The translations under genes and the position numbers were made by a program. This document shows, one piece after another, positions 2,840 to 63,943 of a DNA stretch of 64,000 nt (the first letter of the stretch is position 1; every line of letters begins with the position of its first letter). The notes below the pieces were generated by a model. The model had not been told where the DNA came from. It saw only the letters and a program-made list of their open reading frames with translations, and made no database searches. Origin of the DNA: Eledone cirrhosa (Eukaryota); assembly GCA_964016885.1 (NCBI GenBank), contig OZ024758.1, forward strand, positions 9,176,001 through 9,240,000, read 5' to 3'.

Positions 2840-4234
2840 TAATGAAAGAGGCCCACAATTTTTTAAATCTAAAGATGGAATGAAGTAGTTGCCTAATAGT
2901 TATTTATAGTAAAAACTAAACCAAGAATAACCATAAGAACTGAGCTGCTTCTATTAGCCTATGACAACAGTCTGAAGATTAGAAAATATGTCACACTGAA
3001 ATTGTACTCTTAGCTATCTTAAACAGAGTGCACAATACAAAGGCATTTTGACTTAATCTAAGACTACCCCAACTTACAGGCAGCAGAAGTCATTGAAAGG
3101 TCATTAAGTGTCATTAGCCTTGGTCAAGTGTTCACAGTGAAATAGGTGGTAGTGATATCATTAGAGTCTGAAACAGTATAAATAATCAGAATACTAATTC
3201 CGGCCAGTTAATCTGCTCCCATATATGGAAATGACCAACTAGCCTTTACAATAGAACTATAAACTACTTACTCTAATTTTAGTTACTTGGGCATTAAGTA
3301 TGACTACTCAAGTAGACAGTATTTAGATATAAGCAGTACTAAGACAGAAAAAATATTCTTTAAAAGTTGCCAAAATTCTATTAAAATAAACATGTCACAT
3401 TGTTTTAAGATCAGCAGCTAGGTTCAATTGTGAAGCAGTTTTAATTGATAACATGGTTATGTATCAATTAATTAATAGGCAATCTAACTAACATAAGTGA
3501 TGCCAACTTGTAGAGTTTTGATACAAGTGATGTGATGCAATTCCTTATGCAAGCTATGGTTTCTTTCTAAGGCAATTATAATGCAGAAACAAAAGGATTT
3601 TGTATTGTTTGGCTAAAGTTCAATCTCACGATTAAAAATAAAATGAAAGCACAACAGAAAACTGGTTTGAAAAGATTCAATCAATATATGTCAGCCTTAG
3701 TGATAAAACTTAACAAGCATCCTTCACATGTGATGATCATCTGAAAGGTTCAGACAGGGTTAATAATAAACAATAGCTTGACATGCAATTATGAGTGCTT
3801 GCTGACATTAAAACAATAAGCATGTTAAAGGAACCTGCAAAAGCAAAAGATAGTCAAATCAAGTTTGATCTATTTCAACAGAGGAATCTAATCTGCAATG
3901 ATACATAGAAGAAGCCATACAAAGTAAACAATGAAATTCTTTTAATATCTGCTTCCAGGTTTACTTGGTTGGGTGAATCTGCAATGCAGCATCTGTAATG
4001 TCTAATCTTTTAACATCCACTTGCTCTGCTAACAAGTGTAAATATGTCATCATGGGACTTGGTTCTCTAACAAGAAGTTTTCCCCAGCAATCAATGACTT
4101 GCAAATCAAACTTGTACCTCCAACACTCATTGGCTAATATCCGATATCCAGCCACATTTCTAATCTGGCTGCTATTAAAGCAAACTTTAATTACTGTGCA
4201 ATACATGAACACTGGATCTATACTCCTCAAAATA

Positions 4235-4474
4235 CAGTGGAACCTCAGTACACAAACTTAAATTTTTCTTGAAGGCCTTTTGTCACCCAAATTGTTTGTA
4301 AACCGAAACTATTTTTCCTATACAAAATGTTGAGAGAGAATGTGCGTGAAAGACCTTAGTAACTAACTACATAGCAAGTGACACTTTCCTGATACGCCGA
4401 GCTTGTTGCCAATTGTTGTTGATGGATTGCATGTTCATAACTCAAGACACTGTTTGTCAATTGAGGTTCCACTG
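4235..4474. mobile_element. Tc1/mariner (Tigger/pogo-like) MITE
   Basis: Perfect 13-bp TIRs CAGTGGAACCTCA / TGAGGTTCCACTG, with TA on both sides (4233-4234, 4475-4476). Confidence 0.85.
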
Positions 4475-4532
4475 TAATTACATTTCAAAAGTTAACTAAA
4501 TACAGGTACCCTTTTAGTGATACATGAGTGGA

Positions 4533-4672
4533 TGCAGCATGGCTGAGTGGTTGGGAGGTTCACTTTGCAATCGTTAAGTCCTGAGTTCAATCCCACTGCG
4601 TGGCCTGTTGGGCATCATTTACTATAAACCTTGGGTATGACTGTGTAGAGAAGCTGTTTGGAAGTCCATATA
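4533..4672 (+). mobile_element. tRNA-derived SINE (family A) running into microsatellite
   Basis: A box TGGCTGAGTGG and B box GAGTTCAATCCC, then CACTGCGTGGC...TTGGGC core; the tail merges with the (TA/CA)n tract. Confidence 0.7.
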
Positions 4673-4683
4673 TACCAAAGACA

Positions 4684-6550
<1,867 letters not shown>

Positions 6551-8209
6551 CATCATCATCATCATCATCAGCGTTTAACGTCCGTGTTCCACGCTTGCAT
6601 GGGTTTGGACGGGGGTAGTCCCACTTGAGGCAAGAGTGATTGTCTTGCTCGCATAGGACTGTCTGGCAGGTTTTCTACAGTTGGATGCCCTTCCTAACAC
6701 CAACCACATTTACAGTGTGGGTCTGGGAGGTTTTTACCGTGTTGCCTACACGGCCACATTACAGCGTGGACTGTGTGTTTTTTTGTCGTGACACCTACAC
6801 GATCTCATTTGTTTCGGCCTCGATGGCGCGGCACCAACATAACTTTACATAGAACGGGGTGGTGTGGATCGGGTGGGGGTGGTGGGACGGGGTGTATTTG
6901 TTAGAGATGCCTACTGGCTGGAGTAGGTTTTACTATATATTTAGGTAAGGCGGGTCTTCTCTGTTACTGAGTACCGCCAAAGGTCTCGGTCCAGTGACAT
7001 TGTCTTGGAGAGGTGTAAGTGTGTGATGTCGGAGTTTATCAGCTCGTCCCAGGTTTTTCTAGGTCTGCCTATTCCGTGACTACCGTCTATCTTTATTGCC
7101 CTGCACTTTGTTATACAGCTATCGACTTTCATGCGCATCACGTGTCCATACCAACGTAGCCTTCTCTCGAGTAAACAACATCTGATCCCTCTTATCTCTA
7201 ATTTATTCCTTAGTTCGTTTATGCTTTGCCGTTCACGTATATTACTGTTACACATCCAGCGGAGCATGCAAGCTTCGTTCCTCTCTAGTCTGCGTATATC
7301 CTCTGCACACAATGCCCAGGTCTCACTGCCATGCAGCATTGCTGTTCGTATGCAGGCATCGTACAACCTGCCTTTCATTTTTAGTGAGAACCCTTTAGCA
7401 GCTAATAGTGGTATAAGCTCTCTGAACTTTTTCCAACCAGTTCTGACTCTAGCTACAGTACTTTCAGAGCACCCTCCCCCACTGCTGATTTTATCGCCCA
7501 GGTAACGGAAGCTGTCCACTATTTCTATAGAACCCTCTGCGCAATTGAAAGAGCTAGTAGTTTGTGGGCACTTGCTGCTACTTATTGCACCAGAGCACCG
7601 GCCACATGTAAAATCTATGTTCTTAGTTAGCCTACCTGTGATCCCACTACATCTTTTATGCACCCATACTTTGCATTTAGGACATAAAATGGAGTTTCTA
7701 CCTACGCCTTTCCTACACACCGAGCACGACCATTTCCCAGAAGGGACCGCCGCCTTGTTTTCTTTCCTACAAACTAGTACTTTGGTCTTAGCCAGGTTAA
7801 TTTTAAGTCCTTTTGACTCTAGGCCGTGCTTCCATGTTTGGAATTTCTTCTCTAGCTCGGCCATTGATTCCGCTATGAGTGTCAGGTCGTCTGCGTATAG
7901 GAGTTCCCATGGGCAGCCTGTCTTGAACTCCTCTGTTATGGCCTGAAGGGCAATAATAAATAGTAGTGGACTGAGAACAGAGCCCTGATGGACGCCGACT
8001 TTTACGCTAAACTCTTCACTATATTCGTTGTTAATTCTAACCTTGCTGACTGTTTCTTTATACATGGCTTGTATAGCCCTCACAAGCCATTCGTCAACGC
8101 CTAGTTTTCTAAGAGCCCACCAGATAATGGAGCGGGGGACTCTGTCGAAGGCTTTCTCCAAGTCGACAAAAGCTAAGTAGAGGGGTTTACCTTAGCTAGG
8201 TACTTCTCT
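6551..8209 (-). mobile_element. 5'-truncated RTE LINE (RT with internal PHD-like finger, 3' UTR, (TGA)n tail)
   Basis: ORF 6941-8161 contains DLEKAFDRVPR, GVHQGSVLSPLLF, LLYADD (7886-7897), FRYLG, RRLRWYGHVMRM and GRPRKTW. A 1-bp frameshift lies in [15 protein letters not shown]. (CAT)n tail at 6551-6569 on +. Confidence 0.95.
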
Positions 8210-13126
<4,917 letters not shown>

Positions 13127-13326
13127 NNNNNNNNNNNNNNNNNNNNNNNNNNNNNNNNNNNNNNNNNNNNNNNNNNNNNNNNNNNNNNNNNNNNNNNNNN
13201 NNNNNNNNNNNNNNNNNNNNNNNNNNNNNNNNNNNNNNNNNNNNNNNNNNNNNNNNNNNNNNNNNNNNNNNNNNNNNNNNNNNNNNNNNNNNNNNNNNNN
13301 NNNNNNNNNNNNNNNNNNNNNNNNNN
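13127..13326. other. assembly gap (200 N)
   Basis: Run of N; the round length suggests a scaffolding spacer rather than a measured gap. Confidence 0.97.
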
Positions 13327-13659
13327 TAACCAAGATGATATTTACCAAAAAGAAGAACAAGTCAACATCATTGGATATCATCAGGGTTGCAGGTGTTATA
13401 TCAGAGTTTTCCTTCTCCTAGAATTCTACCTTGACTAAGGCTAAGGGGTCATCTCTCCCGGTGATTTTGGATGGCCATTGACTCTTAAGAGCTCCTTTGA
13501 CCTTTGACAGGTTTTGTTTTTAGTCCTGCAGGATGTCCAAAGTCACCCTCCTCACCAAGAAACCTTGGTGGGGTTGCCAGTTTAGTCGCCAACGACCCGA
13601 CCATGAGACAGGTTGTACTGGGATACATGTTACCAGTAGCACCAACTGGTGACCTGACA
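13327..13659 (-). mobile_element. probable RTE LINE 5' UTR
   Basis: Homologous to 28405-28770 (+). Contains TAGGAGAAGGAAAACTCTGA, a motif I recognise from RTE/BovB 5' UTRs. Confidence 0.6.
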
Positions 13660-20335
<6,676 letters not shown>

Positions 20336-20340
20336 TATAT

Positions 20341-21725
20341 ACTTATACATAAGTATATATACATATACATAAGTATATATACATATACATAAGTATATAT
20401 ACATATACATAAGTATATATACATATACATAAGTATATATACATATACATAAGTATATATACATATACATAAGTATATATACATATACACAAGTATATAT
20501 ACATATACACAAGTATATATACATATACACAAGTATATATACATATACACAAGTATATATACATATACACAAGTATATATACATATACACAAGTATATAT
20601 ACATATACACAAGTATATATACATATACACAAGTATATATACATATACACAAGTATATATACATATACACAAGTATATATACATATACACAAGTATATAT
20701 ACATATACACAAGTATATACATATACACAAGTATATACATACGTATATATACACACAAGTATATATGTGTATATACACACAAGTATATATGTGTATATAC
20801 ACACAAGTATATATGTGTATATACACACAAGTATATATGTGTATATACACACAAGTATATATGTGTATATACACACAAGTATATATGTGTATATACACAC
20901 AAGTATATATGTGTATATACACACAAGTATATATGTGTATATACACACGTATATATACGTATATACACACAAGTATATATGTGTATATACACACGTATAT
21001 ATACGCAAGTATATATGTGTATATACACGTATATATACACAAGTATATATGTGTATATACACGTATATATACACAAGTATATATGTGTATATACACGTAT
21101 ATATACACAAGTATATATGTGTATATACACGTATATATACACAAGTATATATGTGTATATACACGTATATATACACAAGTATATATGTTTATATACACGT
21201 ATATATACACAAGTATATATGTGTATATACACGTATATATACACAAGTATATATGTGTATATACACGTATATATACACAAGTATATATGTGTATATACAC
21301 GTATATATACACAAGTATATATGTGTATATACACGTATATATACGTATATACACGTATATATACACAAGTATATATGTGTATATACACGTATATATACAC
21401 AAGTATATATGTGTATATACACGTATATATACACAAGTATATATGTGTATATACACGTATATATACACAAGTATATATGTGTATATACACGTATATATAC
21501 ACAAGTATATATGTGTATATACACGTATATATACACAAGTATATGTGTGTATATACACGTATATATACACAAGTATATGTGTGTATATACACGTATATAT
21601 ACACAAGTATATGTGTGTATATACACGTATATATACACAAGTATATGTGTGTTTATACACGTATATATACACAAGTATATGTGTGTTTATACACGTATAT
21701 ATACACAAGTATATGTGTATATACA
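20341..21725. repeat. three successive minisatellites (20, 24, 34 bp units)
   Basis: AAGTATATATACATATACA(T/C) at about 20341-20720; AAGTATATATGTGTATATACACAC at about 20750-20950; ACACAAGTATATATGTGTATATACACGTATATAT at about 21000-21720. Confidence 0.95.
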
Positions 21726-21751
21726 TACGTATATGTGAGTATATACGTACG

Positions 21752-21793
<42 letters not shown>

Positions 21794-24700
21794 TACACTA
21801 TATATATATATATACACATATATATATATCTAGATACACATATATATATATATATATATACACATATATATATATATATATGTGTATATATATATATATA
21901 TATAAGCACTACAATTAAATAACAAATAAAGGATGGCAATACCAGTTGGCTGAAATTTATAAAAGAAATAAAAGATGCAGAAGTACATAATTTAGAGAAG
22001 AACTATTCCAGTATTTGTCTTCAACAAACCCAAATAAACTTTTAGCTACATGCTGCAGTAAGAGATTTGCTTCATTTTCTTATACATATTTCTGAAGCAA
22101 TTTACAGCACACCATATCTATCGCATGAAAGTTGAAAAACAGTAACACTTGTGCATAAGTCTCTGAAATATGTAATTGAAAAGAATAAAAGAATTGTCAT
22201 ATCCTTCTAAATCTTCACACTACATCAATGCTGTTAAGTCAATGACAACATTAGAAATGTTAACTCTGTGACACGATCTGAATAAGTGAAACTGTAGAAG
22301 AAAACGAAAAGAATAAAAAATCAATAAATAAATAAATAAATAAATAAAAAAAAAATCAAGGCACCAGTTCTGCGTTACTCTTGCAAACTATATATTCTAT
22401 TCTCATATATAATATACTGGCTCGGAAATATATCTTTCTTAGAGCTATTTTGTTGTAAGAGACTATTTTGAGTTCCTAACTCAATATATACCTTTGATAG
22501 ATTAGGTTATATAGCAGAGATTACAGCTCTTTTGGAAAATACCCACTGAGTGACGAACCAATAGAGTAATGAATGATTAAGCAATTCTAATAACATAAAA
22601 GTGCAACGTATAAGTGAGGGGGTGTAGCTACATTTTTATAGCAAGCAAAACAATGCTTATAACATTGGATGTAAAGGGTGATATACACAAGATTCCTAAC
22701 TGAAATTCTTAATTTTGTGAAAGAAAACAAACCCAGTGGCAAATGTTAGCAACACAAAGAAAAGGGAGACAATTTCAAAAAATTAAGTATTAATCCCTCA
22801 CGTTAATTTACATGCTATTGAACAACAATGAAATTTACAGCTAATACCTATGTAGGTGTGTAGCTCGCTTCCTACGGGGTTACATTACAGGGCTCTTTGG
22901 TATTTTAATGAGGAGCCTTAGTTCTAACATGAAAATAAACATCTATCAAGGGCCTGAAGAGGCTTGAGATTTACGGCAAAAATCTTGAGGCAATTTTAAT
23001 CCAGTCATGTTTATGCAGAAGAAACTGTATTTGATAACGATAATCATTGGTAGATCTCCCAAATAACGACTAAAGGTTACATGTATAAAACCTTAAGATG
23101 GTTGTTAAAGAAAACGAATAGCCAGTGCCGATGTCAAGTTGTAGTTATTAATGAAATATTTTATCGACATCTTACGAAAGATACTGGTAATCGGTGAAGA
23201 AATGAACAACAAACGCATGTTGTGTGCGCGCAAGCGCGTGTTGTATGTGCAGCAATAAACTACTTCAGTTATCGACAATTGATACTTAAACTATGCAAAT
23301 TATGTTCTTGTAAATTGACGTATTACTAAGTACTGGAGTTTAAGAGTTAAGATTTGACTGAGACTGAGTATGTGTAAACCGGCAACGAGGTATAAGAATA
23401 ACTAAATCTAGGTCCCCCTCAAGTAGTATCTATATAAAGTGATTACCAGAGCATAATTATACGTTTAAAGTGTTGAAATCTAACCAACAGAAACCTGTTG
23501 AAACTATATAATATATTACTGGCGGTAAATAAACAAACAAACTATATTAACCAAGCAAATTTTAAATTATGGCTATGCCTGGTAATGATTCTATAATAGT
23601 AAGTCAGTAAAATAAAATATGAAGTTACAAGCAGTTCTATTACATCTGGACAATTGAAGTATTGTGAACGCAAATTTTTTTTTTTATTCACTAAAAAGTA
23701 TTCCTAAAAGTACACATAATCGTCGGATAGGAAACAACAGCAATCGTTTCTCTCCGTACACAGTAAAAATTAAAATTCAAAATTATAGTTTAATCATATC
23801 AAAACATTTTGTTAAATAATTGTAATAGGATCAACAAAAATAGATTTTGACGTCAGTTGTAGCTAAAGAAGCAAATAAGAAGAGGGGGGAGGGGGGATTC
23901 CGAAATTGTAAATTTTTTTTTATTATTATTGTAAAATGTTACGAAGAAACATTGGAGAAATCAAATATCTTCCTATTGTGAAGGACTAAAAAAAAAAACA
24001 ATTGGAAAAAAATTTGAAATATTTCATTCAGCCACCAAACGTTATATTATGAATTTCGACCTCATGACCTGGCGTTTAGGGTTTCATTAAACACTCAAAC
24101 CTATCAACCGTATAAGAGGTTTCAATAGCCTAATCTTTGGGCAGTTTCCAGTGTAGCAACGGTAAACAAAATACATCGAGACATTTTCGATAAAGATATT
24201 TTTATACACGATTTTACATACGGAAAAAAAAAAAGAAAAAAGAAAAAGAAAAAAAATGGAGAAAATGTTCGAGTGATTAATAATTGTACGATGAAATTCA
24301 GATGGATTGTAAAAAAAATGGACAAAATTAAAGCTAGTTAATATGCGAAAGTCGCAATTTAGTGCGAATGGAGATCAAGAAGTGAATATTATACGAGATG
24401 AGTAAGAAAAATGTATGTAATAACGGAGCAAGCCGGTGGTAGTGAGTGAATCAACCAAGGCTTTACTGTTAGTTGTTAACCATTGTAGATGGATACAGAA
24501 ATATTAGATAGATATATAATGCAGGCAAGCGAGAGACATGTTCAACAACCATTTTGGTGAAGGAAGAAGCTATCGCTTCTTTAACATTACAGAACCATAC
24601 ACACGTTCATACCGCTCCTATCTTATTACAGTAATGACACATTTGATATATCATCGGAACCAAACTCAATGTTGAGAATAATTCTAGCCCCTTCTATAAG

Positions 24701-35745: not shown

Positions 35746-37397
35746 CTACCTTACTGCACAAATTGGAGACCATGAGAGGGAGGGGTACCTCGCGAACTGG
35801 GATGCAAAAGATCCATGTTGGCTTACGCCGACGACGTCACCATGGTGGTGTTGAACACCAAACACGTCCAGATGCTCGGCACCACTCTCAATCTCAAGGA
35901 ATACGAAGCAAAGATAAACCAGGAAAAGTCGATAGGCTTGCAACTCGGCACCTGGAGAGGCAAGTCCATGCCGTCCAACAGCGTCGTGGGGCACTGGATG
36001 GAAGGACCGGTTAAATTGCTCGGGGTCTGGTTCGGTCCGGTCTTCCAGATGGAGAAAAACTGGAGCGAGGTGATGAGCAGGGTGGCTTCTCTCACCCAGA
36101 AATGGGCTGAGAGGAGGCTGTCTCTGAAAGGTCGGGTGGAGTTGGCGAATGCGTACATCGCGTCCGTCATCTGCTACCGCCTGACCGTCGTACCTTGCCC
36201 CCGTCCAACTCTGACCAAAATAGAGGGCCTTCTCTTTCACTTTTTGTGGAAGGGACATGCTCCCATGGTCAAACGATCCATCTGCTGTCAGCACCCATTG
36301 CGTGGAGGACTGGGCATGCCGTGGCTGATGATGCGCTGAGGCTGCGACATCTCTGGTGCTTCCTTGATAGTGAACAGGTATGGTCACTGCTTGCCAGATG
36401 TGGTCTCCATGATGGAGTTGCAGTCCTGGATCAAGCGCTTGGGAGCTGGAATGTCTCCTAGCACTCACCACGCTCTACCAGCTGGCACTGGTATCGGTGG
36501 AACAACCACCTCAGCGTTCTATAGAGGGCTAGTGGAGGGGAAGAGCAACAACGTTCTCGGGGAAACCCTGGGCGTTGAAGACGATCAGCTGTTCGCTCTC
36601 TTTGAGAGAACTTTCATCCTGGGGCCTATGGAGAACTTCCAGAAATCCCTAGCCTGGCAGTACTTCCAGGGGGCGTTGCCGGTTCAGGATAAGCTTTACA
36701 GGCATAGAGGTGCTGTCAGCCGAACGTGTCGAAGATGCACGCAGGGTGACGAAACCATCCTGCACGCACTCGTTCAGTGACCGAGAATTGCTGAATTGTG
36801 GGGCTATGTCGAACAGTTGCTGTCGCGTGTAGGACGGATCCGGTTATCGACTGAGTCCATTGTGCAGATAGCCCCACCATCCTCCATTAAAGAGGAGGAA
36901 GGGAAGGCAGTCTTCATCTGCCTGGTGGCCATGATGAAAGAGATTGTGTGGTGGACAAGGTTGAAAGGATTGAAGACGGACACTTTCCTCTCCGGCCAAT
37001 CCCTGATTAACTTTTTCAAGTTTCACTTGAAGAGGAAAATCAGGGTGGGGAGGCAAGTGCCGTCTTCTAGTAAGTTTGTAGAAAGGTGGGTGAAAGTGGC
37101 GAGTCTGGTCTGAGTGAACGGGCCCGCTCTGAGTATGTTCCTGTAGACTGAGGAGTGGGAAAACTGAGAGAGGGTGTTTGTCCTGGTGGTCAGGGTGGCT
37201 GTGGTCTTTTGTGTGGTTTTCGCCACGAGGATCCTTGGGGAATTTTTGTTGTTTGAATTTAAAAAAAATTTGTTTTTGCACATTTCTATAACCTTTTTAC
37301 ATGGCCAAAACCCCCTTTGTACCATCCTGTACCATCTGTAATGTTTTTCTTCATGTTAGCCCTTGTGGCCAATAAAGAAACCATTATTATTATTATT
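35746..37397 (+). mobile_element. 5'-truncated Tx1/L1-clade LINE (RT, CCHC knuckle, 3' tail)
   Basis: AYADDVT, KLLGVWFG, WAERRLSLKGR, GGLGMP, CRRC..ETILHALVQ(C>stop)P; AATAAA at 37371 then (ATT)n; markedly higher GC than the flanks. Confidence 0.9.
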
Positions 37398-37398
37398 A

Positions 37399-37580
37399 GG
37401 GCAGTGGATTGGCAGAATTAGTAGAGCATTGGACAACATGCTTAGTGGCACAGAGTTACGACCATTTACGTTCTGAGTTCAAATCCTGCCGATGTTAGTT
37501 TTGCTTTTCATCCTGACTGAGGTCAATTTAATCGACTTTCTCCTCAAATGCTGGTCTTGTGCCTATAGTAGAAACAATTA
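37399..37580 (+). mobile_element. tRNA-derived SINE (family B), internally deleted
   Basis: TGGCAGAATTAG A box, GAGTTCAAATCC B box, GTAGAAACAATTATT tail. Confidence 0.85.
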
Positions 37581-37620
37581 TTATAATTATCATCATCGTC
37601 ATCATTATTAAGTTGTCAAG

Positions 37621-37803
37621 CGGTGAATTGGCAGTATCGGTAGAGGGTTGGACGCCATGCTTTCCAGCATAGTTACGTCCCTTTACGATCTGAGTTCAAA
37701 TCCCGCCGAGGTTGACTTTGCCTTTCATCCTTACGGGGTCGAGAAAATAAAGTACCAGTGATGCACTGGGTAATTGCTGGCCTTGTGCCAAATAGTAGAA
37801 ACA
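37621..37803 (+). mobile_element. tRNA-derived SINE (family B) with TSD
   Basis: A/B boxes; perfect 17-bp TSD ATTATTAAGTTGTCAAG at 37604-37620 and 37804-37820. Confidence 0.93.
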
Positions 37804-38442
37804 ATTATTAAGTTGTCAAGCCTTTGGGTTATTTATCAATTTCCGCCAACAACAGTTGGATATTGAAAGATTAAAATGAAAACGACTGTTCTTTCTTTTG
37901 CTAGAATCTGAAGAAAACTTAGAAAATTAGAAGTTTCAGCTCTCTGAGGCATTTGAAATAAATATATATAGTAAAATACTTTATAGTGGTGAATAATTGA
38001 AATGGTAATAATCTAAATATAAAGGGATGTAACAAATTAAATTATATCCATTTACATGTTCAGTTAACTTTGATTGTTATGTCTTTAAGGTTGGTAGAAC
38101 TGTCAGTAATGTAGCTACAAAATATTTGGTTTTGGTGCCTTATTGTATTAAAAGAAAAACCTACTAGAACAATTTCCATTTTGTAAAGGGACATTATCCT
38201 CCCTAATATTAGAATATTAGAGTTCTTTCCCTTGAATTAAACCTTTGACGATTTCTGTTATTTCCGATAATACATCCCAACAATATATTTGCTAAATATT
38301 TAGTTATATTTCAATTAGTATTTATTCGAACGAACTCTTGAAACTCTGTCAGATCTCTAGTACCCATGATTGTATTATATTTCAGAATCAACAGTTCTTT
38401 TGTTCAATATTTAAGAAGGCCTCTGCTTTATTCGTTTATTCA

Positions 38443-38632
38443 ATAATTGTTTCTACGTTAGGCACAAGGCCAGTAAATTACCCAGTGTATTACTGGTACT
38501 TTATTTTATCGACCCCGTAAGGATGAAAGGCAAAGTTAACCTCGGCGGGATTTGAACTCAGAATAGCAAGGGCCGTAACTCTATGCGTCAAAGCATGGCG
38601 TCCGACTCTCTACCAATACTGCCAATTCACCG
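38443..38632 (-). mobile_element. tRNA-derived SINE (family B)
   Basis: Reverse complement of the family B sequence. Confidence 0.9.
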
Positions 38633-39371: not shown

Positions 39372-39526
39372 ATATTCATGTTATTAAGGCGAAATAGTGA
39401 GTCTTGCTACTCTGGAGTTTCGTGTGTTTATCACAGCAAGAACTATTCTTATCTGATGACCCTGTGATAAACAGGCAAAACTCCAGAGTAGCAAGACTCA
39501 TTATTTAGCCTTAATAACATGAATAT
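39372..39526. mobile_element. palindromic mini-element with degenerate hammerhead
   Basis: About 63-bp inverted arms. Plus strand CUGAUGA(39453)-CCCUGU-GAUAA-ACAGGC-AAAA-CUCCAGAG-UA; the opposite arm retains CGAAACUCCAGAGUA. Confidence 0.7.
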
Positions 39527-46532: not shown

Positions 46533-46629
46533 ACTAAATGTTAATAAGGTTCATTGATTACTCAATGAATATAGTTTTTTTTACAATAGATTCAAAGCAC
46601 TCAACAATGAAGTTTTCTGGAGTTATTAG

Positions 46630-46735
46630 TATTATTCAAAATATTAATAAATGAAGACGTTCACATAATCAAAATATAATAAAACATATATTTTGATTAT
46701 GTGAACGTCTTCATTTATTAATATTTTGAATAATA
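46630..46735. repeat. near-perfect palindrome (about 48-bp arms)
   Basis: TATTATTCAAAATATTAATAAATGAAGACGTTCACATAATCAAAATATA / reverse complement, with a short spacer. Confidence 0.9.
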
Positions 46736-47090
46736 TATAATAATAATAATAATGAAATTATTGTATACAGTGCTCAGGTGCACTACAACTCATCAAAGGT
46801 GCATGTATAGTACATAGAATAATGTACAAATGTCAGGAAAATGAACAGTGTATGAGTCATGATATAATAATAACAATAATGAAATATTGTGTACAGTGCC
46901 CAGGTGCACCACAGCTCATCAAAAAAGTGCATGTACAGTACATAGGGCAATGCACAAACATCAGTAAAATGAACAGTGCACGAGTCATGATACACACATG
47001 TGTGCATGTGTATGGAAGGGGTACATCAAGTGTAGTTTTGGCGTATTTCGGGAAGCATGAGTGTCTTAAAGGATGCAGTGTCTCGGCCTA
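46736..47090 (-). mobile_element. LINE (CR1/L2-like) 3' end with tandemly duplicated terminus
   Basis: Minus strand RDTASFKTLMLPEIRQNYT* followed by UTR; about 115-bp duplication (46750-46865 / 46878-46990), each ending in (ATT)n on the minus strand. Confidence 0.55.
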
Positions 47091-47220
47091 TATATGCAGA
47101 AGTTCTATTTAAATTGTTGGGATACAACAAGCAAATATTTTTATAGCTGATATAAAGCACTCAACAAATTATTGGAGTAAAAATACGATATATTAACAAA
47201 TGGAAACTATATTTATAAAA

Positions 47221-47300
47221 CCATATTCATTTCATTATACATATTTCAAGGACACCAAGTTAAATTATGGTGTGCTTTCATCAGATAAAATATAATATAG
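47221..47300 (-). ncRNA. minimal type I hammerhead ribozyme
   Basis: CUAUAUUAUAUUUUAU-CUGAUGA-AAGCACACCA-loop-UGGUGUCCUU-GAAA-UAUGUA-UA-AUGAAAUGAAUAUGG. Same family as 59708/59899; lies inside the inverted repeat 47185-47390. Confidence 0.8.
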
Positions 47301-47515
47301 AGCAGTTTTATAAATAAATATTGACATACCCTTAAAGAATGAAATAAATATGGTTTTATAAATATAGTTTCCATTTGTTAATATATCGTATATATATATA
47401 GTTTCAGAAGATCCTGTTTACAGTGAAAGCAGAAATTCTTTGCTAAAACTTAAATCTGTACTAATTATAAATAAATAATATATATATATATATATAATTT
47501 ATTTATTTATTTATA

Positions 47516-47945
47516 TATTAGTAGAGATTTATATATATATTAGTAGAGATTTATATATATATTAGTACAGATTTATATATATATTAGTACAAATTTATAT
47601 ATATATTAGTACAGATTTATATATATATATTAGTACAGATTTATATATATATATATTAGTACAGATTTATATATATATTAGTACAGATTTATATATATAT
47701 ATTAGTACAGATTTTTATATATATATTAGTACAAATTTATATATATATTAGTACAGATTTATATATATATATTAGTACAAATTTATATATATATTAGTAC
47801 AGATTTATATATATATATTAGTACAGATTTATATATATATATTAGTACAAATTTATATATATATTAGTACAGATTTATATATATATATTAGTACAGATTT
47901 ATATATATATATTAGTACAGATTTATATATATATATTAGTACAGA

Positions 47946-47950
<5 letters not shown>
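47516..47950. repeat. ATTAGTACAGATTT(AT)n minisatellite (about 22-28 bp)
   Basis: About 18 copies with a variable TA spacer; an inverted single copy lies at about 47452-47466. Confidence 0.93.
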
Positions 47951-47991
<41 letters not shown>

Positions 47992-48193
47992 GATTGGTGC
48001 TCTGAAATAGCGATGTATATACGAGTGTATGTATAGTATATTTGGCAATATACCGTATGTTTAATTAAAAACATTTTGAAGACTAAACGCTATCGGTTTT
48101 AAAGTAGTGACTATGTCACTTACTTCTTTTCGTCGAAAGAAGGGAGAGAAGCTGACAGTCTGTTTCACGCTGTTGGCGATCATCAGAGCCACG

Positions 48194-48237
<44 letters not shown>

Positions 48238-48260
48238 ATGTAATAAACAACATAAGGCAA

Positions 48261-48326
48261 TTATTCCATTTACCAGTGGTTTCTTAAAAGCAAAAGGTTT
48301 TGCTTTCAATCCTCAGAATGAAAAAA
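48261..48326 (-). ncRNA. minimal type I hammerhead ribozyme (intact core, GUA site)
   Basis: UUUCAUU-CUGAGGA-UUGAAAGCAAA-ACCU-UUUGCUUUUAA-GAAA-CCACUGG-UA-AAUGGAA; 11-bp stem II, stem III ACCA/UGGU. Confidence 0.85.
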
Positions 48327-48411
48327 TCCTGGTTTGTTTATTGAAGTTGGATCTTAAAAAACCTTTTTTAAAAACCTTTTTTAAGATCCAATTTCAATAA
48401 ACAAACCAGGA

Positions 48412-48477
48412 TTTTTTCATTCTGAGGATTGAAAGCAAAACCTTTTGCTTTTAAGAAACCACTGATAAATGGAATAA
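48412..48477 (+). ncRNA. minimal type I hammerhead ribozyme (mirror copy)
   Basis: CUGAGGA at 48422, GAAA at 48455; one G>A in stem III gives an AUA site. Right arm of the 48231-48507 palindrome. Confidence 0.8.
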
Positions 48478-48599
48478 TTGCCTTATGTTGTTTATTACAT
48501 AATAATAATTAAGCTCTGTTGCTTACATAGAGCACTCTTTTTTCCTGGACTTTTCCGACGGAATTACTTCATTCACACATATATATATATATATATATA

Positions 48600-48909
48600 T
48601 ATAACAAAGAAGGTGAGGTAAGATACCAGGTGGACCATAATGCACCAGAGTACTCAATACTTAGGGTAGTAGAGTGGGTAATGGGAAAAGAGTTAGGACC
48701 CCGACGGGTGAGCTCCGACTGTTTCGACAGCTAGATCTAAACTGTTCAGATCAAGCTGTCGAAATGGCCGAAGCTCAGCTGTCGGGGTCTTGACTCTTTT
48801 TCTATATATATATATATATATATATACACAGACACAAACACACATACGCATATACACATATACTTATACATGTATATAAATATGTGCATGTGTTTGAGAC
48901 TGTACGTAG

Positions 48910-48988
<79 letters not shown>

Positions 48989-49182
48989 AGAAAGTATGAC
49001 CCCGACGGCAGAGCTCAAGCCGTTTTGATGGCTATTTCTGGAATCCAGAAATAGCCGTCGAAACGGCTTGAGCTCTGCCGTCGGTGTTAAACATTTTCCT
49101 ATTACCCACTCTACTACCCTAAGTATTGAGTACTCTGGTGTGTTATGGTCCATCTGGTTCCTTACCGCAACTCCTTTGTTAT
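48600..49182. mobile_element. two inverted copies of a TA-embedded mini-element, each with a fold-back and half-hammerhead
   Basis: 48602-48797 and 48990-49182 are inverted homologues. Internal palindromes at about 48693-48793 and 49001-49084 carry CGAAACGGC-loop-GCCGUC. Confidence 0.7.
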
Positions 49183-49197
49183 ATATATATACTTGAC

Positions 49198-49759: not shown

Positions 49760-50910
49760 TTATGGAGCAGTGGAAAACTGCCAGTGTCATTCCTCTGTTT
49801 AAAAAGGGTGACCGCACGTCGCCTGTCAACTATTGTCCAGTCAGACTTACTAGCTGCATTGCCAAACTGATGGAATCCTGTGTCAGAGAAACACTTTGGA
49901 ACTTCTGAAATTCTCACAGTCTTATCTGGCCCTCGCAATTTGGATTTTTCCTTGAAGACATCACCCGGATCACTGATGGCAGCTCATGGGTTGATGTTGT
50001 TTACTTTGCAAAAGCTTTCAATTCTGTGCCTCACAAAAGACTTATGGCAAAACTCTCTGCAATGGGTGTGAGAGATGATCTTTTTAACTGGTTGAAGTCT
50101 TTCATTCTCCGTCGAAGAGAGGTAGTCACGGTTCTAGGACAGCATTCCTTACCATATGAGATGTCATCTGGTGTACCACAGGGATCTGTTCTTGGTCCCC
50201 TTTTGTTTGTGGCATATATTAATGACATAGGTGCCAACTTAAAGAATGCCACAGTACTGAAATATGCAGAAGACATCAAGCTGTACCTTGAGATAAAAAG
50301 GACAGATCCTGAACACTATAGATCTTTCCTGCAATCAGACCTGGACACAATGCAGCAATGGATCACGGACTGGCAACTCAAGTTGGTTGTAGACAAGTGT
50401 ACCACCAATAATTTTTTTAGGAAAAACCCAGTGTCCATATACTCCCTCCCCAACACTAATATCAAGAAGTCTTCTTGTGAATGTGACCTGGGCATTACTG
50501 TCAGCAGCAATTTGCATTGGACGAAGCACATCTCTAAAATTGTCAAGAAGGCCGAAGGTGTCTTAGCATCACTCAGCAAGGCATTTGTCAGCCATTCTCC
50601 AGCTATCTATTTAAAGTAGTATATAGCTATGGTGCAACCACACTTAGAATTTGCATCACCAGCCTGGAACCCTTATCTTGCTCAGAACATTGATCTCCTG
50701 GAAACTGTTCAGAGACGTTCAGCCAAGCGAATACCCTCCATCAGGCATCTACCATACTCTGAACACCTTGCTTCCCTGGGCATGGATACACTGAAGCTCC
50801 AACGTCTAGGCAACTGCCTTGGTAAATACCCACAAAATTATTAACCATCTTGCTAACAACAACCCTGAGCAACTTTTTGATTTCCATGTGTCTAACACAC
50901 GTGGGCATGC
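49760..50910 (+). mobile_element. CR1/L2-like LINE RT fragment
   Basis: VPHKRLMAKL, SGVPQGSVLGPLLFVAYIND, YAEDIKL, DLGITVSSNLHWTKHI, VQPHLEFASPAWNPY, LETVQRR; stop at 50617. Confidence 0.92.
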
Positions 50911-52435: not shown

Positions 52436-54240
52436 CTGAAATTTTTGTTGTTGCAATAAAATTTACATTGTGATGCGATGCATATGTCAGGATTCTTCTT
52501 TCTTCTTTAGTTCCTTTTGCTTCCTATGGAGCATCGGGCAATGATAAGTCTCCATTGTGTATAGTTAAAAGGCCTGCTCCCAGGTCAGGCTCATATCTGC
52601 TAGAACTTCCTTCACAGATGTCAACCAAGTCATGATGAGTCTGCCTTCAGTCATGGGTATTAGGGTATGTAAAAGTTGTTGTACAGAAACTCTCAGGAGA
52701 GCTTGACAGCAGAAGGTCTTCAGAGTAGACCCCCCCCCCCCTCATCCTCAAGCAAATGTTTCAGGTTTTTAACTTCAGGAGGATGTAGATGTTTAAAAGA
52801 CATGCTGGGATGTTTGGCTTTCAATAAAAAAGAGAGGGTTATAAGTTAAAGATAGATCAATAAAATTTTTATCTAATATTATTTTACAACCATATTTAAC
52901 ACTTTTAGTGTTTTTATTAAGAAGTAAAAATAAAGATAAAGCCAAACAAATGATAAATTCTCTTACTGCTTGCCATAAGGAATCCAGTGGTTTTCATAGT
53001 CTTGTTGTTTACAATAGTTATAAATGTGTATGTTGTACATCTGTTGGTTCTGATGTCTACTGCTCCAGTTGTTTTGATCAACAGAACAGCCTGCTTGTGA
53101 AATTAATGTGCAAGTGATTGAACATTGCACAGATATGTGTACTCTTAACATAGTTCTCAAGGAGATTCAGTGTGAACATCATAACCATGTGTCTTCACAA
53201 TAGTTATAAATAAGGGAAAGAAAACACTATTAAACTATACAACAGTCCTTAGCAATATAAATTTTGGTCTCTGCTGTAAACCTTTGTTCCCTAGTATCTT
53301 CTTGTGATTAGAATGTCAGATGGAATGCTTTGTGGTATTCATTTGGGCTTTCAGTACATTGAGTTCAAAACTTGTTAAGATCAACTTTGCTTTTCATCCA
53401 TTCAAAGTTAATAAGAAACCATCAGTCCAGTATTGGGGTCAATTCTTCTTCTTTATCTGTTGCTTACTTTCCTTCTCTCTTCCCTGGAAGAAACCAGCTG
53501 TGATCAGACCTGGAGAGGAGATTGGTTCCCCCAGATTTAAAATCTCCAAAACACACTGTACATCACTACAAGACCCCTATGATTCCAACAGGAGTTATGA
53601 GTCCACATAGACATGTATCTTCTAGTGAGACATCAGTATTCTATGAAAAGTAGGAAGTATAGAGAGCATTTACTAAGTATTGTCAGGGTCATTTAGCTGA
53701 GTATACTCTATAAACTCTCTGAACTGATAGCGCATACTGTAGTAAAGATAACCAAAACTCTGTTGGTTTAATCACAATGGAAAAATTAGGCTTATAAGTT
53801 GTTTGACCAGATGGCTTCTTTTCACATAAGAGAAATATTCTCATGACATTCCTTAAGAAGCTAGATCTTTGTGAAAACATGATTTTATCAGCTTTTCATT
53901 AACTTTGAGAGGAGTGGCAATATTTTAGTAGATAAAGTGTTAGCTTTATACAGCTGAAACAGTATGAGTTCATATCCCATCATTGTCATAAATTTTCTTT
54001 GTATCGAGATAGCTAAGTGAATCAACTTTATCTACCTTTTATGGATTGGCAGTATCAGTAGAGCATGAGATTCGACTTTCCCCTCCATCAAAATTATTGC
54101 CTATATAAAGAAATATTATATTGTTCATCAAACTTTTCATTTAGTAGTGTTCATACAGTTTTTTTTTTTTCTGTGGGTGGGTATTGAGAATTAATATATC
54201 GACTGCTGAGTCAGAAATACATTGATTATATTGAAAAAAG

Positions 54241-54418
54241 AGCGTTGGATTGGCAGTACTGGTAGAGGGTTGAACGCCATGCTTTCCAGCATAGAGTTAC
54301 GGCCCTTTACGGTTTGAGTTCAAATCTCGCTGGGGTTAACTTTCATCCTTACGGGGTCGATAAAATAAAACACGAGTGTACTGGGATAATTGCTGGCCTT
54401 GTGCCAAAAGTAGAAACA
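54241..54418 (+). mobile_element. tRNA-derived SINE (family B) with TSD
   Basis: A/B boxes; ATTATATTGAAAAAA repeated on both sides. Confidence 0.9.
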
Positions 54419-55055
54419 ATTATATTGAAAAAACCCACAAAAAACAAAACATATTCGCTCATGTGTCGTATTCCTTAGTTATTTTAAAGATAAGTTGTTA
54501 CATAAAACAACGAGGCTTTTAAATGAAGTAAAATAGGTACAAATCCTACTTCAGTGTGAAGTAAATAACATCATGTTGGATAGTCAAATATCAGAATCTC
54601 CATAAATATGCAACCCATGCTATTATAGAGAAGTGGATTTAAAAAATATTAACTTAACCACCCTCCTTAGAAATATGTTGATATATTGACCTTACAATGA
54701 AACCACTACATGGACGCTTGACCGGCTAGAAATAACAGCCAAATTCCCTTCAACTCACACCTTAGCATTTTGAAAAAAAAAGGAATGACATACAGCAGAA
54801 GGTGTTCCCCAAAACATTGTCTGATAATAAAATAGGATAATCATGGTTGGAATGCTTTAACCATAAAATTGCTTCATTCTAGCTGATCTGAGACTAAAGC
54901 AATTATATACATAGGATTGTATGAAGCTGGTCTTATTTCAGATATGAACTACTTGAAACAATGCAATGTCTAAGTGTCAAATTCTGTTATGCTACATACA
55001 CAATAAACGAAACATCCTGTTAGAATAGTAAAACATATTAGCTTTTACTATCTTG

Positions 55056-55238
55056 TGGATTGGCAGTATCGGTAGAGGGTCGGACGCCATGCTTTCCAGC
55101 ATAGTTACGTCCCTTTACGGTCTGAGTTCAAATCCCGCCGAGGTTGACTTTGCCTTTCATCCTTACGGGGTCGATAAAATAAAGTACCAGTAATGCACTG
55201 GGTAATTGCTGGCCCTGTGCCTAAAGTAGAAACAATTA
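55056..55238 (+). mobile_element. tRNA-derived SINE (family B)
   Basis: Near-identical to 37621-37803. Confidence 0.92.
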
Positions 55239-55342
55239 TGTTATAGTGTAAGTGAGGGCAGTTGTAATCACGAAGTTGACTGTGCAGTCGAATTCCCTGC
55301 AAAACTACTGTCTAGGAAAAGGCTGTTTTTGTCTTGTCATAA

Positions 55343-55462
55343 CCTGGTAAGGATGAAAGGCAAAGTTAACATCGACGGGATTTGAACTCAGACCGTAAAG
55401 GGACGTAACTATGCTGGAAAGCAGGCGTCCGACCCTCTACCGATACTGCCAATTAACCGCCC
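55343..55462 (-). mobile_element. 3'-truncated SINE (family B) with TSD
   Basis: Head only; 14-bp TSD TTGTCTTGTCATAA at 55329-55342 and 55463-55476. Confidence 0.88.
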
Positions 55463-55966
55463 TTGTCTTGTCATAATGGTGAATATCTTTATCTCCCGAG
55501 AAAGCCCACGACAGAAAGGCACTACATCTTAAAAAGAAAGCAAAGGAGAACACTTCATCCATTCAAGGTCGATAAAAAAAGTACCAGTCAAGTAGTGGGT
55601 CGATTCTTCCTCTATAACTTCCCCTTTCTCACTTACATTCTCTGGAAAAAATCTGCTGTATTCAGACCTGGAGAAGATTGGGCTCTGCCAGGTTTTAAAA
55701 TGCCCGAGAAACTCTGTATGTCACTACGGTGTCCCTACGACACTATCGTGAGTTACTGGACCATACCATACATTTAATACTGTTTAAATTAACTCTGATT
55801 AAATAAGATTTTAGACGTGAAAGGCTGCTGTATCATTTTCAGTGCTTTGGTAAGTTAGCGGTGCTTTCTATAATTCCATTCTCATGACTATACATAAATT
55901 GGGTAAAATTATAGATGAACACCCCTCTCCAAGCCACAATACACCACACCACACCCCTCCAAGCCA

Positions 55967-59557: not shown

Positions 59558-59592
<35 letters not shown>

Positions 59593-59707
59593 TTATATTT
59601 AATTTGTTGGGATACAAGCAAATATTTTTATAACTGATATAAAGCACTCAACACATTTTTGGAGTAAAAATACAATATATTAATAAATGGAAACTATATT
59701 TATAAAA

Positions 59708-59787
59708 CCATATTTATTTCATTATACATATTTCAAGGACACCAAAGCAAATTATGGTGCGCTTTCATCAGATAAAATATAATATAG
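59708..59787 (-). ncRNA. minimal type I hammerhead ribozyme
   Basis: Reverse complement of the 59899-59978 motif (TCATCAG at 59765-59771); left arm of the palindrome 59671-60015. Confidence 0.82.
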
Positions 59788-59898
59788 ATCAGTTTTATAA
59801 ACAAATATTGACATAATACCCTTAAAAGAATGCGACCATGTCTGTTGGAAGCTCCGGATTCTTTTAAGGGTATGTCAATATTTGTTTATAAAACTGAT

Positions 59899-59978
59899 CT
59901 ATATTATATTTTATCTGATGAAAGCGTACCATAATTTGCTTTGGTGTCCTTGAAATATGTATAATGAAATAAATATGG
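59899..59978 (+). ncRNA. minimal type I hammerhead ribozyme
   Basis: 15-bp stem I with one bulge, CUGAUGA at 59915, stem II AAG..UACCA/UGGUG..CUU, GAAA at 59952, self-complementary stem III AUAUGUAU; predicted cut after A59963. Confidence 0.82.
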
Positions 59979-60490
59979 TTTTATAAATATAGTTTCCATT
60001 TATTAATATATTGTATATATATATATATATATATATAAGAAAATAAGTTTTTTCTTATATCCTGCACAGGTAAAAATATAGGAAAAAGAAGTTGAAAATG
60101 CAATTGGAGTCTTTAAGAAGATTTATTTACAATAACTTTACTGGTTTCGTAGTTTTATGATTTTAAAAAGTCTGAGATGGAGAGATGTGTGACTATGGAA
60201 TGATGTGTCTTGCATTGGAGAGGTTGGGGAATTTCTTTCTGGTTTATACCAAAAACGTGATTCAGATTGCTATCTGTTTAAAGTACAATTTGGTTGGTTG
60301 TGGATGCTCCGTGATAAGGAATTAAATTTTGTTATAATTTTTACACCAAAAATTAGGAGTGCCATGGTTTAGTGACCATGGCTAGTAACAATCCCAACAT
60401 ATCAAATGTAGAGTAATTTTATTTGTGTGTGTGTGTAGAAATAGTTGTTTTTGTTTCCTCCTATGTTTGAATATGACGAGTAAAAATAAT

Positions 60491-63355: not shown

Positions 63356-63393
63356 TATATAAAGAGTAGCCTTTTCTCCTGCTTAAATCATTT
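63356..63393 (+). promoter_or_regulatory. TATA box and Inr of the cofilin gene
   Basis: TATATAAAG at 63356-63364 and TCATTT at 63388-63393, about 32 nt apart and about 45 nt before the ATG. Confidence 0.65.
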
Positions 63394-63435
63394 CCCCCGT
63401 CTTCTTCGTTGACTTCTGTTCGCAATAATCTAAAT

Positions 63436-63728
63436 ATGACGTCAGGAATTTCCGTGTCCAAGGCTGCTATTGAAATGTTTCAATTTATAAAATCAAGCAA
63501 AAAAATGCGGTATGCTATATTTAATGTATCTCCTTGTGAAGCTGAAATTATTCCAGGTGACTCTGTTCCTAAACCTGATAAATTAGACCTCAGCTTAGAT
63601 GCTGTGAAGAAAGAATGGACAGAGTTTTGTACACAGCTTCCCTTAGATGGCAGCTGCTATGCAGTATATGACATGAGTTTCCAAAAACATGAAGGATCAC
63701 GGAGAGATAAACTTATTTTAGTTACTTG
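63436..63728 (+). CDS. ADF/cofilin family protein, first coding exon (partial gene)
   Basis: MTSGISVS...KKMRYAIF...WTEFCTQLP...CYAVYD...RDKLILVTW; Ser3 retained; donor TG|GTAAGT splits the Trp codon. Confidence 0.92.
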
Positions 63729-63943
63729 GTAAGTTTTAAAATTTTCTCGTCAGTTTGAAATTCTTCTCAGATTCTTTCGCAGTTCTTTTCTCTTTTAAAG
63801 GGATTATTAAAGTGGCCTATTTGAAAACTTATTACTTCTAAACTTACTTTACGGACATTTAATATTTAATAAATAAACTTATACCCGACTATTAATATCT
63901 TCGCTTTTAATCATTGAATATTTAACAGTTTTCTAAACACACA

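Follow-up and report, generated by a model that had tools for sequence, protein, structure and literature searches.

The palindrome and its setting

The window, that is, the whole 64,000-nucleotide stretch of the Eledone cirrhosa genome analysed here, contains an inverted repeat with arms at 48231-48368 and 48370-48507 (138 nt each, 97% complementary), flanked on both sides by TA repeats that differ in sequence between left and right. Each arm carries a hammerhead motif, with a gap of 105 bp between the two (Table 1). The palindrome with arms of about 130 bp that had been picked out in an earlier sequence-only reading is thus real. Outside the centre, the arms are mismatched at two pairs of positions only, 48273/48465 and 48346/48392, in agreement with the count of about two differences given in that reading; the centre is untidy besides, with mismatches at 48362/48376 and 48363/48375 plus the middle base, 48369. 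Two changes in 128 bp amount to a divergence of 1.6% (exact 95% range 0.2-5.6%), as expected of the young event that had been proposed. Given that the family base at 48346/48392 is A, and that the right arm has a T seen at 4 other sites, whereas the C of the left arm occurs nowhere else, it is likely that both arms acquired one change each once inserted. The right arm continues as a tail before the TA repeat; the left arm lacks a tail, and its terminus coincides with that of the tail-less arms elsewhere in the family. The orientation of the right arm relative to the open reading frame (ORF) of the element was taken from three long copies (L031, L032 and L064).

Table 1. Features of the palindrome, in window positions
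Feature	Positions	Strand	Basis
(TA)n target microsatellite, left part	48195-48230		Sequence; (TA)n at the termini of family copies
Left arm: element 3' end (pLTR), inverted, 5'-truncated and without a tail	48231-48361	-	96% to the natural full unit of L066, positions 4056-4184
Type I hammerhead, family-standard sequence; C3 at 48316, scissile GUA ending at 48271 (N17)	48261-48326	-	Sequence, folding
Junction: asymmetric centre of A/T runs in which an A-run/CC/T-run motif is repeated; unique to the window insertion	48362-48376		Centres of other copies differ
Right arm: element 3' end, on the ORF strand of long copies	48377-48507	+	95% to L066 unit, positions 4056-4253 including the tail
Type I hammerhead with G16.2>A at 48465; C3 at 48422, N17 at 48467	48412-48477	+	Sequence, family alleles
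One-sided 66-bp tail; in tandem copies runs into the 5' UTR of the next ORF	48508-48573	+	L066 comparison, pair survey
(CA)/(TA)n target microsatellite, right part	48574-48603		Sequence

The window also holds a second head-to-head hammerhead pair, at 59590-60016, which belongs to another family of high copy number (CUGAUGA core and palindromic helix III; 452 genome candidates) and has a tail of ~85 bp on one arm, TA flanks and one mismatch outside the centre. Another CUGAUGA-core family copy lies at 47090-47391, with a minus-strand hammerhead at 47284, a tail and a very short inverted stub. To the left of the palindrome, a 22-24-bp AT-rich minisatellite (47451-47987) precedes part of a further repeat with a very high copy number (48030-48180); to the right, at 48592-49191, an inverted element sits between TA repeats, with arms of 109 bp (87%) and, after each arm, a long internal hairpin (48686-48800 and 48984-49102). 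Further palindromes and inverted pairs are found at 46623-46743, 39372-39526, 37404-38632 and 54238-55464. A reverse transcriptase fragment (49909-50619; RVT_1, E 2e-20) and a zf-RVT fragment (36340-36780) are LINE-like and unrelated to the ORF of the element described below. Finally, a frame at 63370-63732 matching Cofilin_ADF (E 6e-9) is likely a host exon, and a long tract of low complexity and extreme GC skew, which includes a gap of 200 N at 13127-13326, occupies positions 4500-22000.

The repeat family and its coding element

Searching the 3.0-Gb genome with the arm sequence returned 285 candidates, the best of the 40 that were scored being 96-100% identical. The 46-nt motif spanning C3 to N17 occurs in 1,502 exact copies across the genome, as against none for the same pattern read backwards, an abundance far above chance. 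Among the first 100 matches listed, all on one contig (C1), neighbours within 10 kb were arranged head to head in 25 cases, tail to tail in 1 and directly in 2, so that half of these matches (50 of 100) sit in 25 head-to-head pairs; this sample, chosen by an intact-motif pattern on a single contig, favours young copies. Gaps between the paired motifs range from 24 to 8,590 bp, and 10 of the 25 are no longer than 102 bp, compared with 105 bp at the window palindrome. Scaling these 10 per 100 to 1,502 copies, about 150 equally tight palindromes (range 74-265) are expected genome-wide. In addition, we found 33 still shorter palindromes with arms starting around the scissile bond.

The layout of the pairs is uniform in one respect and variable in others. 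One arm with a tail faces one without a tail in all 25 pairs, exactly as in the window. In every pair that could be typed (17 of 17; the remaining 8 of the 25 could not be), the two arms belong to the same subfamily, and at two other loci rare alleles are common to both arms, which suggests that both arms of a pair derive from one source. The relative length of the arms varies: the tail-less arm is the longer one at L063, L070 and L097, the tail arm at L069, L093 and L094, and the other 19 of 25 pairs are near-symmetric or of unclear order. Palindrome lengths form a continuum, from less than 60 bp to more than 8 kb, with several of the short copies near-equal in length. The centres and junctions are different at every locus, with none shared among the 6 loci compared; they are sited at native micro-palindromes or within the T-run that lies upstream of the hammerhead (the latter in 5 of 10 short pairs), and small duplications are frequent in them. 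One locus, L062, displays a double structure in which two tail-bearing arms face each other, each with its own tiny fold-back.

In the longer pairs and in tandems, an ORF is located upstream of the hammerhead arm on the same strand. Of the 88 matches listed in a protein search, at 85-100% identity, 16 were stop-free at 714 codons. A 714-codon frame at L064 (3187-5331) contains the reverse transcriptase motifs QFDIVDFYPS and YRDD and a C-terminal endonuclease motif, VVYE..YVG. The family ORF further carries RWK at 41, DKT at 118, a CxCx5C linker (CSCRKPDEC) at 559, a CxxC (CSLC) at 662 and a CxH (CPH) near 693, and CX2-5CxxC is absent. Pfam searches with the family ORFs gave no match at E 0.01, with one spurious match at E 0.11, and a sequence search of the PDB returned a chance spectrin match only; in the Atlas feature search, the nearest clusters carry HTH_animal, GIY-YIG and RVT_1 (scores 0.96-0.99). 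The combination of an ORF for a reverse transcriptase with a C-terminal GIY-YIG endonuclease (in long copies, not in the window), tandem and inverted pLTRs, a one-sided tail and a hammerhead within the pLTR is that of EN+ Penelope-like elements (PLEs). Section 11 of PMC8557442 lists, for the Hydra clade of these elements, RWK, DKT, CxCx5C, no CX2-5CxxC, terminal CxxC/CxH and (TA)n targets, all of which are found here, the GIY-YIG core being free of CCHH cysteines and the CxxC and CxH lying near E and N. Thus, as judged by motifs and the Atlas feature search rather than by a tree, the family is likely a Hydra-clade PLE.

The window retains only the end of this element. Its match to the natural unit at L066, 4,253 bases long, is confined to the final 200 bases, and a tblastn comparison of the ORF with the window recovered no ORF remnant. 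In the tandem copy L066, the hammerhead is followed by the tail, the 5' UTR and then the ATG, 227 nt past N17 and the scissile bond; a tandem pLTR arrangement is present in both L032 and L066, and the tandems of the family are 1-4 kb pieces of the ORF-bearing element. In long copies, including L064 (5777-5875), the 3' UTR holds a second, decayed hammerhead region (~81% identical), in which the core is altered and position 17 is G; this region lies within ~2 kb of mixed microsatellites that move along with the element.

The hammerhead and its predicted folding

The minus-strand motif has, as described in the sequence-only reading, an intact core (CUGAGGA...GAAA), an 11-bp stem II with one G-U pair, closed by an ACCU loop, and a GUA site; helix III consists of ACC/GGU around ACU, and stem I of 7 bp with 2 more beyond a mismatch. 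The type I core (C3-U4-G5-A6-N7-G8-A9, G12-A13-A14, A15.1-U16.1 and H17) is present in both copies, and the plus-strand motif indeed bears the one G>A in stem III reported earlier, namely, G16.2>A. This change appears to be ordinary decay at background level, because 30 family copies have a base other than G at 16.2, 17 of them A. At gathering thresholds, Rfam yielded no match in the window. The pair closing stem II is U10.1-A11.1, not G10.1-C11.1, at the window and in all 1,502 exact copies; a U10.1-A11.1 closing pair probably reduces hammerhead activity. The G10.1-C11.1 pair is termed highly conserved in hammerheads in PMC4209133, and we found no cleavage-rate data for U10.1-A11.1 hammerheads in the literature looked up.

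According to folding predictions, the hammerhead fold of the intact minus copy, taken as a 74-nt monomer, lies 3.1 kcal/mol above the minimum, and its helix III, a weak palindromic element formed by a self-complementary 9-mer, is paired with a probability of ~0.10. When two intact copies are cofolded, the double hammerhead is the minimum-energy structure (P = 0.77), compared with P 0.00-0.01 for the variant/variant and intact/variant combinations; helix III of the plus (G16.2>A) copy has P 0.00 as monomer and as dimer. For the full palindrome, either strand is predicted to adopt a hairpin of ~-200 kcal/mol, leaving stem II with a probability of 0.000. On these models, the intact motif would fold well only as a dimer, and the full hairpin would abolish both folds. 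The view that the long hairpin competes with the catalytic fold is thereby upheld for read-through transcripts; the companion statement, that transcription from either direction yields a ribozyme, fails on the plus strand, which would give the damaged copy, predicted to be unfolded as monomer and dimer alike. Nor is there support for ranking this locus as the best candidate for an active ribozyme: its intact arm is letter for letter the motif of the 1,502-copy family, and the non-canonical 10.1-11.1 pair and the low predicted pairing of helix III in the monomer further weaken the case.

As a genomic proxy for cleavage, we looked for a pile-up of arms whose 5' end falls precisely at the scissile bond, counting by eye. 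Such arms made up 11-14 of 75 matches (one that was checked is a variant copy), as against 4 of 30 at control position -9 and 3 of 26 at +4, a 2-3-fold excess (one-sided P 0.04-0.008). A third control, +7, which was picked afterwards since it looked common and which drew on a wider subfamily set, gave 19 among the first 100 listed of 166. In the 33 very short palindromes, ~6 of 66 arms start at the scissile bond, compared with ~9 at +7 and 7 at -5. With no distinct signal and no excess over the +7 control, the pile-up was rejected as evidence of cleavage in vivo.

For metazoan PLE hammerheads, PMC4209133 and PMC6765202 describe a dimer model, with low activity even as dimers, which agrees with the cofolding of two intact copies, and the hammerhead of the element studied in PMC11167929 cuts only with the protein. 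The motif described here is predicted to be the element's own pLTR ribozyme, working weakly, as a dimer or with the protein of the element, on tandem transcripts and not at the window stump.

Origin of the palindrome and its published counterparts

We consider it very probable that the palindrome arose when a high-copy Penelope-like retroelement inserted, in 5'-truncated form, into a TA microsatellite. The 3' end with its 66-bp tail faces, head to head, a copy that is inverted and has no tail, and the halves likely derive from two short cDNAs of a single insertion. In the scenario that we propose, the endonuclease would nick both strands within (TA)n, and reverse transcription would start at two RNA sites ~66 nt apart, 40 and ~106 nt downstream of the scissile bond. 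The reverse transcriptase would then pass through the uncleaved hammerhead and halt in the T-run ~45 nt upstream of the core, whereupon the two cDNA ends would be joined with a few untidy A/T letters; each arm would subsequently acquire one point change. Read-through of the locus would give a long hairpin in which both motifs are switched off and which might be edited or diced as a by-product. In vitro work on a Penelope-like protein has shown that it cleaves and extends both strands, that the tail corresponds to the interval separating two reverse transcription start sites, and that the template is mainly uncleaved RNA (PMC11167929).

The pairs appear to be explained best by the end-to-end joining of two cDNAs that were primed separately, because the fold-back of a tail-bearing cDNA cannot yield the longer tail-less arm observed at L063, L070 and L097; alternatively, unequal arms could result from later deletions. 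For the near-symmetric short copies with junctions on native micro-palindromes, snap-back self-priming, proposed in PMC3846280, fits equally well.

Under the insertion scenario, the palindrome needs no purpose, given that it is the routine insertion layout of PLEs (25 of 25 sampled pairs; PMC8557442, PMC3846280, PMC4209133), and the self-silencing architecture suggested in the sequence-only reading finds no support. That the locus is a selected regulatory device, kept since the hairpin switches the ribozyme off or feeds small RNAs or ADAR, is very improbable. Such a device would suit the predicted complete dominance of the hairpin, and heavy A-to-I editing affects both palindromic repeats and the Penelope elements of lizards, with a very high hyper-editing signal in octopus (PMC5625713). 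However, many loci repeat this layout with centres that differ, the G>A change is at background level, some 150 copies as tight as this one are expected, and no promoter or host exon was identified adjoining the palindrome. What is plausible is a passive role as a putative dsRNA/ADAR substrate, arising as a by-product if the locus is transcribed; on A-to-I editing of inverted cephalopod Penelope copies, only general papers were found. Among the sequencing runs listed as containing the sequence, none was of RNA, which speaks neither for nor against expression. A more far-reaching possibility, which we regard as unlikely, is that of a young Hydra-clade family with intact ORFs and a U10.1-A11.1 hammerhead cutting as a dimer in vivo, whose two-ended insertion has spread some 150 near-perfect hairpins of 100-300 bp over the genome; these, when read through by host transcription, would turn dsRNA silencing and A-to-I editing against the family itself. 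If so, the insertion chemistry of the element would build its own brake.

Long palindromes are a recognised assembly hazard, and among the listed contigs and reads of 4 public runs aligned to 48000-48590 (at most 3 samples from 2 studies, possibly including the assembly's own sample), none spans the locus. Nevertheless, an assembly or read fold-back artefact is unlikely, indeed extremely so, because the flanks are distinct, the tail is one-sided and each arm has a private change; moreover, the centre is asymmetric, the one-tail asymmetry is repeated in all 25 sampled pairs, and further head-to-head junctions of the family, such as 48325 to 48413 at depth 61, are present in contigs and a few raw reads of the public runs. 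It is extremely improbable that a non-autonomous foldback element, MITE-like or retrozyme, moves here as a palindromic unit: several short copies are near-equal in length and 5 of 10 break in the same T-run, but every centre differs, with no common junction among the 6 loci compared, lengths are continuous, and the unit is not a tandem retrozyme array, its arms being the 3' end of an ORF-bearing element.

Thus, the locus is likely a recent, ORF-less stump of a likely Hydra-clade PLE in the textbook inverted layout and, as one stump among many, matters little by itself. The family, by contrast, with its intact-looking ORFs, more than 1,500 near-identical ends and clear one-tail pairs, is a large natural data set for the unsettled mechanism of PLE insertion, i.e., two primed cDNAs versus snap-back, and makes it possible to test if any cleavage is achieved by a hammerhead that combines U10.1-A11.1 with a palindromic helix III.

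The layout seen in the window has already been published for PLEs. PMC8557442 describes an inverted 5'-truncated copy beside the 5' end with a 30-40-bp tail at one end, PMC3846280 inverted pLTRs with a tail and palindromic junctions, and PMC4209133 hammerhead pairs on opposite strands, 100-700 bp apart. Like the EN+ PLE insertions with inverted pLTRs (PMC8557442, Fig. 2 legend; PMC3846280), the locus combines an inverted 5'-truncated copy, a tail on one arm and a palindromic junction; unlike in those insertions, both copies are cut to ~130 bp and the ORF is gone. A preprint (10.64898/2026.07.22.740005) ties animal retrozymes to pLTRs; a non-LTR retrozyme, with tandem short repeats and a hammerhead per unit, was rejected for this locus, which is a head-to-head pair.

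The remaining comparisons concern the element and its ribozyme. In the Hydra clade of C-terminal EN+ PLEs, as presented in PMC8557442, elements are mostly shorter than 3 kb and tails span 30-40 bp, whereas the unit described here is ~4.25 kb, owing to a microsatellite-filled 3' UTR, and the tail is 66 bp; the clade includes a cephalopod member, Hydra-1_Obim (2,507 bp, (TA)n; supplement sheet 'Hydra'). The Poseidon element PAc of the green anole (PMC11167929) similarly has a tail bounded by two 3' ends, a hammerhead inside the pLTR and AT-rich targets, but its ORF starts inside the hammerhead, unlike the downstream ATG of our tandem copies. With the minimal, PLE-type type I hammerheads of metazoans (PMC4209133; PMC6765202), the motif shares a long stem II, a small palindromic helix III, a predicted dimer and opposite-strand pairs; it departs from them in having no extra base between 9 and 10.1, the U10.1-A11.1 pair and a stem II of 11 rather than 6-8 bp.
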